Positions 1 through 56,673 of a DNA stretch of 64,000 nt are shown here, one piece after another (positions within the stretch are counted from its first letter, which is position 1; each line of letters begins with the position of its first letter). The stretch lies in assembly GCF_056746865.1 (NCBI RefSeq), contig NZ_CM163382.1; one strand, given 5' to 3'. A program made the translations under genes and the position numbers. The notes under the pieces were generated by a model, which worked only from the letters and a program-made list of their open reading frames with translations, ran no database searches and was not told where the DNA came from.

Positions 1-2292
1 TTGCCACGACCGAAACGTATCCGCGTGCCAACTCGTCGTGAATTGGCGTCTTACGGTATTAAGCTGCCCTCACAGCGTGCGGCGGAAGAAAAAGCCCGTG
101 AAGCCCAGCGCAATCAGTACGATTCTGGCGATCAGTACAACGATGATGAAATCGATGCGATGCAGCAGGATGAACTGGCACGTCAGTTCGCCCAGACACA
201 GCAGCAACGCTATGGCGAACAGTATCAACATGATGTGCCCGTAAACGCAGAAGATGCAGATGCTGCGGCAGAGGCTGAACTGGCTCGTCAGTTTGCGCAA
301 ACTCAACAACAACGTTATTCCGGCGAACAACCGGCTGGGGCGAATCCGTTCTCGCTGGATGATTTTGAATTTTCGCCAATGAAAGCGTTGCTGGATGATG
401 GTCCACACGAACCGTTGTTTACGCCAATTGTTGAACCTGTACAGCAGCCGCAACAACCGGTTGCACCGCAGCAGCAGTATCAGCAGCCACAACAGCCGGT
501 TGCGCCACAGCAGCAATATCAGCAGCCGCAACAGCCGGTTGCGCCGCAGCAGCAGTATCAGCAGCCACAACAGCAGGTTGCGCCGCAGCCACAATATCAG
601 CAGCCGCAACAACCGGTTGCGCCACAGCAGCAATATCAGCAGCCGCAACAGCCGGTTGCGCCGCAGCAGCAGTATCAACAGCTGCAACAACCGGTTGCAC
701 CGCAGCCGCAGTATCAGCAGCCACAACAGCCAGTTGCGCCACAGCCGCAGGATACCCTGCTTCATCCGCTGTTGATGCGCAATGGTGACAGCCGTCCGTT
801 GCATAAACCGACGACGCCGCTGCCTTCTCTGGATTTGCTGACGCCGCCGCCGAGCGAAGTGGAGCCGGTAGATACCTTTGCGCTTGAACAAATGGCGCGC
901 CTGGTGGAAGCGCGTCTGGCTGATTTCCGTATTAAAGCCGATGTCGTCAATTACTCTCCGGGGCCGGTTATCACTCGCTTTGAACTTAACCTGGCACCGG
1001 GCGTAAAAGCGGCGCGCATTTCTAACTTGTCACGGGACCTTGCCCGTTCACTTTCGACGGTGGCGGTGCGTGTCGTTGAAGTTATTCCTGGCAAACCCTA
1101 TGTAGGTCTGGAGTTACCGAATAAAAAACGACAAACCGTTTATCTGCGCGAAGTATTGGATAACGCCAAATTCCGCGATAATCCGTCGCCATTAACCGTG
1201 GTGCTGGGTAAAGATATCGCCGGTGAGCCGGTGGTTGCCGATCTGGCGAAAATGCCGCACTTGTTGGTTGCGGGGACTACCGGTTCCGGTAAGTCTGTCG
1301 GGGTGAACGCGATGATCCTGAGCATGCTTTATAAAGCACAGCCAGAAGATGTGCGTTTCATCATGATCGACCCGAAAATGCTGGAGCTTTCGGTTTATGA
1401 AGGCATTCCGCATCTGTTAACGGAAGTCGTTACCGACATGAAAGATGCTGCCAACGCTTTGCGCTGGTGCGTAAATGAAATGGAACGTCGTTATAAGCTG
1501 ATGTCCGCCCTAGGTGTGCGTAATCTGGCGGGTTATAACGAAAAAATTGCTGAAGCCGATCGCATGATGCGTCCGATTCCAGACCCGTACTGGAAGCCGG
1601 GTGACAGTATGGATGCCCAGCATCCGGTGCTGAAAAAAGAACCGTACATTGTGGTGTTGGTGGACGAATTTGCCGACCTGATGATGACGGTAGGTAAAAA
1701 AGTGGAAGAGCTTATAGCACGTCTGGCGCAAAAAGCCCGTGCCGCGGGTATCCACCTCGTACTGGCAACGCAGCGTCCATCGGTTGATGTTATTACTGGT
1801 CTGATTAAAGCGAATATTCCGACCCGTATCGCCTTTACCGTATCCAGTAAGATTGACTCACGTACCATTCTTGATCAGGCTGGCGCGGAATCACTGCTGG
1901 GTATGGGGGATATGCTTTACTCTGGGCCGAACTCCACGTTGCCGGTACGTGTTCATGGTGCTTTTGTTCGCGATCAGGAAGTTCATGCCGTGGTGCAGGA
2001 CTGGAAAGCGCGTGGTCGCCCACAGTATGTTGATGGCATCACCTCCGACAGTGAAAGCGAAGGTGGCGCGGGCGGTTTCGATGGCGCTGAAGAACTGGAT
2101 CCGTTGTTCGATCAGGCGGTGCAGTTTGTCACTGAAAAACGCAAAGCATCAATTTCTGGCGTACAGCGTCAGTTCCGCATTGGTTATAACCGTGCAGCGC
2201 GTATTATCGAACAGATGGAAGCGCAGGGGATTGTCAGCGAACAGGGGCACAACGGTAATCGTGAAGTGCTGGCCCCACCGCCGTTTGACTAA
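1..2292 (+). CDS. ftsK: DNA translocase FtsK, C-terminal ~763 codons (5' end lies upstream of the window)
   Basis: ORF open from base 1; PQ-rich linker repeats, Walker [10 protein letters not shown]-terminal gamma/winged-helix region; matches E. coli FtsK from memory. Confidence 0.95.
442..753 (+). repeat. In-frame tandem repeat, about 8 imperfect copies of a 39-bp unit encoding [13 protein letters not shown] (FtsK linker)
   Basis: Unit cagcagcc(a/g)caacagccggttgcgcc(a/g)cagcagcaatat recurs head-to-tail with point variants; this also generates the spurious overlapping ORFs 70..891(-), 395..775(+), 419..742(-). Confidence 0.9.
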
Positions 2293-52592: not shown

Positions 52593-53795
52593 TTAACTGG
52601 CTTTTTTAATATGCGGAAGGTCGAACGCTTTGCGCAGCGCCCGAACAAACGCTTTATCGTGGCAGATAGTTTTGCCAGGGCTGTCAGAAAGTTTCGCCAC
52701 CGGTTTACCGTTACACTCTACCAACTTAATGACAATATTCAGGGGTTTTACCTGGGGGATATCGCAGGTCAGGCGAGTCCCAATACCAAAACTTAATTGC
52801 ACGCGGGAAGAGAAGTGGCGGTATAGCTCAACCGCTTTGCGTAAATCCAGATTGTCAGAGAAAACCAGCGTTTTACTCTGTGGATCAATTCCCAGCTTCT
52901 CATAATGTGCAATGGCTTTTTCACCCCATTCAACCGGGTCGCCGGAGTCATGACGCAGGCCCTGATAGCGACTGGCGAACTCGACACCGAAATCACGCAG
53001 GAAAGCATCCATAGTGATGCAGTCGGTTAATGCAATGCCAAGTTGGTCGGGATATTCTTCCAGCCAGGCAGCAAGTGCAGCTCGCTGGCTGTTGGCAAGA
53101 TCCGGACTGATTTGCTGATGCGCCTGGAACCATTCGTGTGCTTGTGTTCCCATTGGCGTGAGGGAAAGCCGACGCGCCAGATCGTAGTTGCTGGTGCCCA
53201 CGAACCAGGATTCCTGTTGCAGACGTTTCACGATGGTTTCTTGTACTTCACGAGAAAAACGTCGGCGGGTGCCAAAATCCATCAGATGGAAGCGCGACAT
53301 ATCAAGACCGGCGGTTAATGCCGAGAAATCGGCTAATTTGCTTTCCAGCGTGTCGAGGGCTTGCGCAACGTCGGCCTGCGGTGAGCGATAGCGATGTACC
53401 ATTTCACTGATAACCGCCAGCAAAGGAACTTCCCAGAGGATGACTTCACGCCACGGGCCGCTTAAACGAATATCCAGCTTGCCATTATCGTTGGACACGG
53501 TGACTTGTTCCGGGTTAAAGCGGAACTCGCGTAGCCAGTTAAGATAGTCGGCCTTAAAGAAAGGCAGGGCTGAGAGCCATTGATATTCATCATCCTGCAG
53601 GCGCAGGTGCTGCATCGCCTGAACCTGTTCACGAATAGCATCGGCATAAATACCCAGCAGATCGTCACCTCGGCAACGAAACTCCGCCGCGACATGCACA
53701 TCGTAATAGTGATGAAACACGGCTTGCTGCATATGCAACTTATAAGCATCTGTATCCAGCAACGAGTGCAGAACAGGAGAAGCGAATTGTGTCAT
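52593..53795 (-). CDS. pncB: Nicotinate phosphoribosyltransferase
   Basis: 400 aa from [31 protein letters not shown]...; the ORF-track start at 53843 is an upstream extension. Confidence 0.95.
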
Positions 53796-53825
53796 AGGTG
53801 CGCAGTAGCGTCCTCGTACAGGAGC

Positions 53826-53842
53826 GTTTAGTACAATAAACA
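53826..53842 (-). promoter_or_regulatory. Candidate NadR operator (inverted repeat) upstream of pncB
   Basis: GTTTA-gtacaa-TAAAC inverted repeat 30-47 bp upstream of the pncB start; NadR boxes are TGTTTA-type inverted repeats. Confidence 0.35.
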
Positions 53843-54060
53843 TCTTCAGGAACTGCTGGAGTATACCTTGTTTCGCAATTTATTGAACCCCGATCACACC
53901 ATATGCCACCTTTCTGGTCGATGGCATTACGCGGTGTATGTTATAAAAATGTAGCAATAAAGGCGTTTGTACCTGAAAAGATGAAGATTCTGCATAGCGC
54001 GATTTACGCAACAGGAATAGACTGAACACCAGACTCTATCAAAGATGCTAAAGGTTATTT

Positions 54061-56673
54061 ATGACTCAACAGCCACAAGCCAAATACCGTCACGATTATC
54101 GTGCGCCGGATTACCAGATTACTGATATTGACTTGACCTTTGACCTGGACGCGCAAAAGACGGTCGTTACCGCGGTCAGCCAGGCTGTCCGTCATGGTGC
54201 ATCAGATGCTCCGCTTCGTCTTGATGGCGAAGATCTTAAACTGGTTTCTGTTCATATTAATGATGAGCCGTGGACCGCCTGGAAAGAAGAAGAGGGCGCA
54301 CTGGTCATCAGTAATTTGCCGGAGCGTTTTACGCTTAAGATCGTTAATGAAATTAGCCCGGCGACGAATACCGCGCTGGAAGGGCTTTATCAGTCAGGCG
54401 ATGCGCTTTGCACTCAGTGTGAAGCCGAAGGTTTCCGCCATATTACGTATTATCTTGACCGCCCGGACGTACTGGCGCGTTTTACCACCAAAATTATTGC
54501 CGATAAAACCAAATATCCCTTCCTGCTTTCCAACGGTAACCGCGTTGCGCAAGGCGAACTGGAAAACGGACGTCACTGGGTACAGTGGCAGGACCCGTTC
54601 CCGAAACCGTGCTACCTGTTTGCGCTGGTTGCAGGCGACTTCGACGTGCTGCGCGACACCTTCACCACGCGTTCTGGTCGCGAAGTGGCGCTGGAGCTGT
54701 ACGTCGATCGCGGCAACCTCGACCGCGCGCCGTGGGCGATGACCTCGCTGAAAAACTCCATGAAATGGGATGAAGAACGCTTCGGCCTGGAGTATGACCT
54801 CGACATCTATATGATCGTCGCGGTGGATTTCTTCAATATGGGCGCAATGGAGAATAAAGGTCTGAATATCTTTAACTCCAAATATGTGCTGGCCCGTACC
54901 GACACCGCCACCGATAAAGATTACCTCGATATTGAGCGTGTTATCGGCCATGAATATTTCCATAACTGGACCGGTAACCGAGTGACCTGCCGCGACTGGT
55001 TCCAGCTCAGCCTGAAAGAAGGTTTAACCGTGTTCCGCGATCAGGAATTCAGCTCTGACCTTGGTTCCCGCGCGGTAAACCGTATCAACAACGTGCGCAC
55101 CATGCGCGGATTGCAGTTTGCGGAAGACGCCAGCCCGATGGCGCACCCGATCCGCCCGGATATGGTCATTGAGATGAACAACTTCTACACCCTGACCGTT
55201 TACGAGAAGGGCGCGGAAGTGATTCGCATGATCCACACCCTGCTGGGCGAAGAAAACTTCCAGAAAGGGATGCAGCTCTATTTCGAGCGCCATGATGGCA
55301 GCGCGGCAACCTGCGACGACTTTGTGCAGGCGATGGAAGATGCGTCGAATGTCGATCTCTCTCATTTCCGCCGTTGGTACAGCCAGTCCGGTACGCCGGT
55401 TGTGACCGTCAAAGACGACTATAATCCGGAAACTGAGCAGTACACCCTGACCATCAGCCAGCGTACGCCTGCTACGCCGGATCAGGCAGAAAAACAGCCG
55501 CTGCATATTCCGTTTGCCATCGAACTGTATGACAACGAAGGCAAAGTGATCCCGTTGCAAAAAGGCGGTCATCCGGTGAATTCGGTGCTGAACGTCACCC
55601 AGGCGGAACAGACCTTTGTCTTTGATAATGTCTACTTTCAGCCGGTGCCTGCGCTGCTGTGCGAATTCTCTGCGCCAGTGAAACTGGAATATAAGTGGAG
55701 CGATCAGCAACTGACCTTCCTGATGCGTCATGCGCGTAATGATTTCTCCCGCTGGGATGCGGCGCAAAGCCTGCTGGCAACCTACATCAAGCTGAACGTC
55801 GCGCGTCATCAGCAAGGTCAGCCGCTGTCTCTGCCGGTGCATGTGGCTGATGCTTTCCGCGCGGTACTGCTTGATGAGAAGATTGATCCGGCACTGGCGG
55901 CAGAAATCCTGACGCTGCCTTCCGTCAATGAAATGGCAGAACTGTTCGATATCATCGACCCGATTGCTATTGCTGAAGTACGCGAAGCACTCACTCGTAC
56001 TCTGGCGACTGAACTGGCGGATGAGCTACTGGCTATTTACAACGCGAATTACCAGAGCGAGTACCGTGTTGAGCATGAAGATATTGCAAAACGCACTCTG
56101 CGTAATGCCTGCCTGCGCTTCCTTGCTTTTGGTGAAACGCATCTGGCTGACGTGCTGGTGAGCAAGCAATACCATGAAGCAAACAATATGACCGATGCGC
56201 TGGCAGCGCTTTCTGCAGCGGTTGCTGCACAGCTGCCTTGCCGTGACGCGCTGATGCAGGAGTACGACGACAAGTGGCATCAGGATGGTCTGGTGATGGA
56301 TAAATGGTTTATCCTGCAAGCCACCAGCCCGGCGGCGAATGTGCTGGAGACGGTGCGTGGCCTGTTGCAGCATCGCTCATTTACCATGAGCAACCCGAAC
56401 CGTATTCGTTCGTTGATTGGTGCGTTTGCGGGCAGCAACCCGGCAGCGTTCCATGCCGAAGATGGCAGCGGTTACCAGTTCCTGGTGGAAATGCTTACCG
56501 ACCTCAACAGCCGTAACCCGCAGGTGGCTTCACGCCTGATTGAGCCGCTGATTCGCCTGAAACGTTACGATGCTAAACGTCAGGAGAAAATGCGCGCGGC
56601 GCTGGAGCAGTTGAAAGGGCTGGAAAATCTCTCTGGCGATCTGTACGAGAAGATAACTAAAGCACTGGCTTGA
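54061..56673 (+). CDS. pepN: Aminopeptidase N
   Basis: 870 aa; GAMEN and HEYFHNWTGN zinc motifs. Confidence 0.97.
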   Translation: MTQQPQAKYRHDYRAPDYQITDIDLTFDLDAQKTVVTAVSQAVRHGASDAPLRLDGEDLKLVSVHINDEPWTAWKEEEGALVISNLPERFTLKIVNEISPATNTALEGLYQSGDALCTQCEAEGFRHITYYLDRPDVLARFTTKIIADKTKYPFLLSNGNRVAQGELENGRHWVQWQDPFPKPCYLFALVAGDFDVLRDTFTTRSGREVALELYVDRGNLDRAPWAMTSLKNSMKWDEERFGLEYDLDIYMIVAVDFFNMGAMENKGLNIFNSKYVLARTDTATDKDYLDIERVIGHEYFHNWTGNRVTCRDWFQLSLKEGLTVFRDQEFSSDLGSRAVNRINNVRTMRGLQFAEDASPMAHPIRPDMVIEMNNFYTLTVYEKGAEVIRMIHTLLGEENFQKGMQLYFERHDGSAATCDDFVQAMEDASNVDLSHFRRWYSQSGTPVVTVKDDYNPETEQYTLTISQRTPATPDQAEKQPLHIPFAIELYDNEGKVIPLQKGGHPVNSVLNVTQAEQTFVFDNVYFQPVPALLCEFSAPVKLEYKWSDQQLTFLMRHARNDFSRWDAAQSLLATYIKLNVARHQQGQPLSLPVHVADAFRAVLLDEKIDPALAAEILTLPSVNEMAELFDIIDPIAIAEVREALTRTLATELADELLAIYNANYQSEYRVEHEDIAKRTLRNACLRFLAFGETHLADVLVSKQYHEANNMTDALAALSAAVAAQLPCRDALMQEYDDKWHQDGLVMDKWFILQATSPAANVLETVRGLLQHRSFTMSNPNRIRSLIGAFAGSNPAAFHAEDGSGYQFLVEMLTDLNSRNPQVASRLIEPLIRLKRYDAKRQEKMRAALEQLKGLENLSGDLYEKITKALA

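Follow-up and report, generated by a model that had tools for sequence, protein, structure and literature searches.

NadR control of pncB is already known and belongs to the textbook physiology of E. coli and Salmonella, and the site considered here carries the K-12 sequence. Vinitsky et al. reportedly described the pncB promoter as containing an inverted repeat of TAAACAA that nadA also has. The NadR site of pncB has reportedly been described for both K-12 and Salmonella (Wubbolts 1990; Vinitsky 1991; Penfound & Foster 1999; Gerasimova & Gelfand 2005). Enterobacterial NadR uses its N-terminal helix-turn-helix domain to recognize a palindromic 18-bp operator, TGTTTA-N6-TAAACA (PMC2330245, PMC2330246), and one of these two papers reports that a NadR dimer, together with NAD as the co-repressor, binds this operator in promoters of NAD synthesis and salvage genes. 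While pncB is listed as a NadR-repressed target, the 2025 gel shifts with NadR cover the nadB and nadA-pnuC promoters only (PMC12421817). In the long-term evolution experiment, nadR was mutated in all clones, and nadA, pnuC, nadB, and pncB were significantly upregulated in all of them, with NAD genes outside the regulon largely unchanged in the same clones (PMC9645810).

For comparison, the nadB box of K-12 (TGTTTAGTAAATTAAACA) displays no mismatch to the consensus and ends 7 nt before the ATG, and the nadA box (TGTTTAGCATATAAAACA) displays one mismatch. In the K-12 nadR region (3.5 kb, serB to ettA), no site with two or fewer mismatches was seen. The nadR gene itself lies outside the window, by which we mean the whole stretch of 64,000 nt analyzed here, and its K-12 counterpart (b4390) is annotated as a DNA-binding repressor/NMN adenylyltransferase.

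Given this background, we assign the palindrome at 53825..53842 of the window as the NadR operator (NAD box) of pncB, mediating NAD-dependent repression from positions +12..+29, with a probability of about 0.93. The sequence, the consensus match, the position relative to the published transcription start, and the conservation are our own observations, and NadR recognition and the repression of pncB are drawn from the literature. Direct binding of NadR to 53825..53842 would be expected from the consensus match together with that literature.

The pncB-pepN locus and its NAD box

The palindrome lies between two divergently transcribed genes:

52593..53795, minus strand: pncB coding sequence, nicotinate phosphoribosyltransferase, 400 a.a. 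(RefSeq annotation of identical genomes and of K-12)
54061..56673, plus strand: pepN coding sequence, aminopeptidase N, 870 a.a., divergent from pncB

The two ATG codons, at 53795 (minus) and 54061 (plus), enclose a spacer of 265 bp (53796..54060), in agreement with the divergent arrangement across a region of this length proposed in the initial annotation. The same gene order is kept in most Enterobacterales, and also in Orbaceae and Photobacterium. The window is a piece of the E. coli chromosome. Using an 1101-bp query around the site (window 53400..54500), we identified the locus in 5425 of 5426 complete E. coli genomes, several of which were 100% identical to it, with pncB and pepN as the genes annotated there. 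One complete genome was without a match, and four of the 5431 matching places of the pncB-pepN region fell in records labelled as plasmid. In an alignment around the spacer, 295 of 296 bases are equal to those of K-12 MG1655 and the NAD box is identical. The sole difference is a C at 54040 in place of the K-12 A, 21 nt ahead of the pepN ATG and far from the box.

Relatives were curated by searching one genome per species with a degenerate pattern for a 12-residue PncB peptide, which yielded 120 loci from Enterobacterales, Aeromonas, Vibrio, Photobacterium, and Orbaceae. These loci bear on the choice of the pncB start codon, as the longest open frame of pncB begins further upstream, at ATG 53843, and would encode 416 a.a. 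This in-frame ATG (53841..53843, minus strand) is located inside the NAD box. We rejected it as the pncB start, given it reads TTG in other genera and its frame is broken by a 1-nt indel in many relatives, with the annotated start conserved. In those Enterobacterales loci with an assignable start, pncB begins 13 codons before the query peptide (14 in one Plesiomonas assembly), and this conserved position confirms the annotated ATG at 53795. Within the pncB coding sequence, we also noted an inverted repeat of 10 nt (53724..53733 and 53753..53762; 90% complementary, 19 nt apart), which is probably due to chance.

The palindrome in the spacer can be described at two levels:

53825..53842: NAD box (very probable NadR operator), 18 bp, CGTTTAGTACAATAAACA on the plus strand and TGTTTATTGTACTAAACG in the pncB orientation, 11/12 consensus match
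53826..53841: perfect inverted-repeat core GTTTA-N6-TAAAC, read directly as GTTTA (53826..53830), gtacaa (53831..53836), and TAAAC (53837..53841)

The initial annotation had placed the repeat GTTTA-gtacaa-TAAAC at 53826..53842. Its sequence was read correctly and its end was not: the 16-nt repeat stops at 53841, and 53842 is the last base of the full 18-bp NAD box. The accompanying proposal of a NadR-type operator is borne out by the agreement of CGTTTAGTACAATAAACA with the published consensus at 11 of the 12 half-site positions, the one mismatch being an end base (TAAACG in place of TAAACA). An extended half-site, GTTTAGTA, is common to the pncB box and the K-12 nadB box, and also occurs in the Proteus niaP site quoted in PMC2330245.

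A scan with the NadR motif (TGTTTA-N6-TAAACA) returned this box as the single site with one or fewer mismatches in the 64-kb window, compared to 0.16 expected; scaled simply to the 265-bp spacer, the expectation is roughly 7e-4. The exact 10-base core likewise occurs once in the window, with 0.05 occurrences expected. Matches with two mismatches (5 in the window, 2.3 expected) are background. A generic inverted-repeat scan of the spacer did not report the NAD-box repeat, which was missed due to arms of only 5 nt; the inverted repeat is confirmed as real, strongly conserved, and ordinary. A full-text literature search with the box sequence gave no match, and no NadR ChIP-type data were found in our literature search.

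Promoter geometry and the pncB leader

The transcription start of pncB is listed in the supplementary table of Mendoza-Vargas et al. 2009 (PMC2760140) at 58 nt before the ATG, classed as 'Known' and at a distance of 0 from the RegulonDB start. The same source gives GGTATACT as the sigma-70 -10 element and GGGGTTCAA as the -35 window. Converted to window coordinates, the promoter and leader comprise the following features:

53853, minus strand: pncB transcription start (+1), from PMC2760140
53860..53865, minus strand: -10 hexamer TATACT (-12..-7), sigma-70, from PMC2760140
53882..53887, minus strand: -35-like TTCAAT (-34..-29), within the conserved block GTGTGATCGGGGTTCAATAAAT (53878..53899)
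53796..53853, minus strand: pncB 5′ untranslated leader, 58 nt, containing the NAD box and the Shine-Dalgarno-like GAGGA (53811..53815)

With transcription starting at 53853, the NAD box therefore occupies +12..+29, inside the 58-nt leader, on the downstream rather than the upstream side of the promoter. The earlier description of the box as lying just upstream of the pncB start thus applies to the start codon (30–47 nt before the ATG) and fails for the mapped transcription start. The geometry is now fixed, with the operator following the promoter without overlapping it. The hexamer TATACT is invariant in all 24 aligned Enterobacteriaceae, box-lacking ones included. A consensus promoter/terminator scan of the spacer reported no promoter, the pncB promoter having been missed because its -35 element is weak.

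Given that the box is transcribed at +12..+29 within the leader, the repeat could in principle act as an RNA hairpin controlling stability or translation rather than as a DNA operator, and GUUUA does pair with UAAAC in the minimum-energy fold of the leader. However, this fold (-10.7 kcal/mol) is no more stable than those of shuffled sequences (mean -11.5 kcal/mol, z = +0.34), for which we rejected a hairpin of the box as its main role. The stem comprises just five A/U-rich pairs and is weak, the 6-nt 'loop' is almost as conserved as the arms, and compensatory changes are absent. In addition, the same 18-bp motif recurs at nadA and nadB and, in other genera, at different distances from pncB, which fits recognition as DNA. 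We consider an RNA role for the repeat very improbable, and retain the NadR operator as our reading of the palindrome.

The distal part of the leader (53796..53824) holds an element of its own, GCUCC-N4-8-GAGGAYGC-N4-6-CGC-N2-3-AUG, which is conserved in most Enterobacterales. Its GAGGA is the leader's sole Shine-Dalgarno-like sequence, positioned 15 nt from the AUG, with nothing purine-rich closer. A GCUCC/GGA(U)GC hairpin, which would sequester GAGGA, appears in the minimum-energy fold of about 77% of genera, with leader energies no better than those of shuffles (mean z about -0.5). The alignment-based fold of the leader instead displays a different 5-pair hairpin without two-sided covariation; one arm of the leader hairpin is invariant, and covariation therefore cannot show there. 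Both of these alternative weak hairpins can use GGAUGC.

Conservation of the operator and its surroundings

The box was found in 23 Enterobacteriaceae loci at -47..-30 or -46..-29 from the ATG, spanning nine genera (Escherichia, Citrobacter, Enterobacter, Leclercia, Kluyvera, Pluralibacter, Phytobacter, Kosakonia, and Pseudocitrobacter). Across these 23 loci, the half-sites are unchanged, with the non-consensus final G kept throughout, and the two or fewer changes per locus all fall in the 6-bp spacer of the box. Between the -10 and the box, both sequence and length are variable, including a 10-nt deletion in the Enterobacter cloacae group. In an alignment of 15 box-bearing sequences, 16 of the 18 box columns are invariant, compared to 49% over the full spacer. 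Of 248 windows of 18 nt, that of the box ranks fourth, the other top ones belonging to the -35 and -10 blocks, which places the box among the top three blocks of the spacer in conservation between genera. At the species level, 5412 of 5425 E. coli genomes share an identical 44-mer around the box, compared to 4064 for a control 44-mer taken from elsewhere in the spacer.

These observations bear on the simplest alternative, namely that the palindrome is a chance A/T-rich repeat without function. The arms are indeed short (5 nt), and 13 of 100 shuffles of the window give at least one site with one or fewer mismatches. Yet the site precedes a known NadR-regulated gene, is near-invariant in nine genera despite variable flanks, and is ~100-fold less polymorphic within E. 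coli than the control segment; chance is thus scarcely credible as an explanation. Outside the order, the 300 nt preceding pncB contained no site with two or fewer mismatches in any of the Aeromonas, Vibrio, Photobacterium, and Orbaceae loci. This fits with the DNA-binding form of NadR, which is reported as confined to Enterobacterales and lacking from these four outgroup lineages.

Nine aligned Enterobacteriaceae lack the box: Pseudescherichia vulneris, Escherichia sp. ESNIH1, Mangrovibacter, Shimwellia, Cedecea sulfonylureivorans, Siccibacter, Enterobacter spp. R1 and BIGb0383, and one metagenome-assembled genome. In these species, the promoter and the distal leader are kept, TTGATGGAAACGCTCC replaces TTGTACTAAACGCTCC, and TGTTTA is absent. 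As the box-lacking species read TTGATGGAAACGCTCC, the AAACG of the right half-site probably predates the box, which suggests that the operator may have been built in place from this existing sequence. The final G of the right half-site belongs to the leader element GCUCC, which is conserved well beyond the box-bearing clade; its place within this older element would explain why the operator retains a non-consensus base.

Elsewhere in Enterobacterales, NAD boxes upstream of pncB occupy other positions, ranging from -66 to -250 over the genera concerned. They lie at about -250 in Serratia (L087, L028) and at -220 in Dickeya (L115, L054), with TATAAT directly after each, and from the sequence this combination looks like a second, distal NadR-controlled promoter. 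Perfect boxes occur at about -197 in Cedecea neteri (L105) and Enterobacter sp. Ag1 (L013), a one-mismatch box follows TATACT by 9 nt in Tatumella ptyseos (L065), and Proteus penneri (L050) also carries a NAD box upstream of pncB. NadR control of pncB seems to have been established on more than one occasion or to have moved, and the varied box positions suggest operator turnover, on a small scale, inside a single regulon. The work of Gerasimova and Gelfand (2005) on NadR regulon evolution is believed to address the origin or movement of pncB control.

The pncB promoter contains further conserved elements besides the box. One of these resembles a NadR half-site:

53869..53874, minus strand: GAAACA (-21..-16), a hexamer between the -35 and the -10, just upstream of the -10

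This hexamer reads TAAACA in the aligned box-bearing genera except Escherichia (GAAACA), and TAATCA in all nine box-lacking Enterobacteriaceae. Two box-lacking species are nested within the box-bearing clade in a single-gene PncB tree, and the hexamer pattern may therefore reflect more than one event or an error in the tree. Helical phasing of this extra half-site with the box was rejected, given the spacing varies (7, 15, 17, and 18 nt after the -10). Conservation in the spacer is highest in the block GTGTGATCGGGGTTCAATAAAT (about -46..-25), which holds the top-ranked 18-nt windows and is kept in the box-lacking species and in Serratia. At about -46..-39, the block GTGTGATC is invariant and contains a CRP-like half-site and GATC. 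The corresponding CRP-type site, TGTGATCGGGGTTCAA, displays a perfect left half (TGTGA) and a poor right half, and is centered near -37.5, an unusual position for activation by CRP. It is possible, if rather unlikely, that the NadR box is not the sole control of pncB and that the half-site hexamer, GTGTGATC, and/or the leader element act too; these could represent an undescribed second NadR contact, the site of another regulator, or a translational control element.

The remaining alternative concerns pepN, which could be coupled to pncB through the shared spacer, either by NadR at the box also controlling pepN or by interference between the divergent promoters. On the pepN side, we noted one candidate promoter element:

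53939..53947, plus strand: candidate pepN extended -10, TGtTATAAA, predicted from the sequence, with conserved flanks TGTTAT and ATGTAGC

A pepN start predicted from this element would lie ~100 bp from the pncB start. No pepN start-site data were found in three published supplements, and a promoter scan of the region was also empty. The 265-bp spacer is common to both genes and the arrangement is old; the pncB -35 (53882..53887) and the candidate pepN -10 are only ~50 bp apart, for which coupling via supercoiling is conceivable. However, the promoters stand back to back, with transcription from the pncB start at 53853 running to the left and that of pepN to the right; as they fire apart, the polymerases never meet. 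Relative to the pncB promoter, the box is on the transcribed side, at least about 100 bp away from every plausible pepN start. Furthermore, pepN is absent from the listed effects of nadR mutations, which comprise nadA, pnuC, nadB, and pncB (PMC9645810), and box-lacking species share the same spacer layout and length. We therefore found no support for the promoter interference raised in the initial annotation, and consider coupling of the two genes in either form very unlikely.

With regard to the pepN leader, a search for the PepN 5′ UTR thermometer (Rfam RF02779) gave a match at 53963..54090 (plus strand) of 20 bits (E = 0.36), below the gathering threshold of 83 bits and partly composed of pepN coding sequence. 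The same family scores 110–130 bits in the Yersinia loci L005, L015, and L108, and the thermometer has been experimentally validated in Y. pseudotuberculosis (PMC7337928). A separate Rfam match, to the PyrD leader, was noted at positions 1..50 of the Citrobacter werkmanii locus L007 (minus strand), scoring 53.7 bits, above threshold, and cut by the contig end.

Proposed repression of pncB and comparison with known operators

When NAD is plentiful, NadR with NAD as co-repressor would bind the half-sites TGTTTA and TAAACG via its N-terminal helix-turn-helix domain. The site follows immediately after the sigma-70 promoter, such that the bound repressor would overlap the downstream edge of the RNA polymerase footprint and may block open-complex formation or promoter escape. 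Judged from its position, repression most likely takes the form of a steric block or roadblock. When NAD falls, NadR would leave the site and pncB would be transcribed, raising niacin salvage.

The closest counterparts are the NAD boxes of nadB and nadA-pnuC in E. coli and Salmonella, which share the 18-bp palindrome, the regulator, the co-repressor, and the pathway with pncB. The pncB copy differs in its non-consensus end base (TAAACG). Relative to the predicted promoters, the nadB box follows a -10-like hexamer, as that of pncB does, and a -10-like TATAAA is overlapped by the nadA box. Compared to the pncB site described for K-12 and Salmonella, the gene is the same and the spacer sequence is that of K-12, with no known difference.

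In its placement, the pncB box resembles the lac O1 operator, which is centered at +11, just downstream of the start site: in both, the repressor site reaches into the downstream part of the polymerase footprint rather than in the -35/-10 region. The protein and motif are unrelated, and the pncB site, centered at +20.5, is located further downstream. The NiaR, NrtR, and NadQ operators of other bacteria likewise mediate repression of genes for NAD synthesis and salvage, pncB among them, in response to metabolites of the pathway. These systems differ from NadR in protein family, motif, effector, and taxa, and are thus analogues of the pncB NAD box rather than its relatives.
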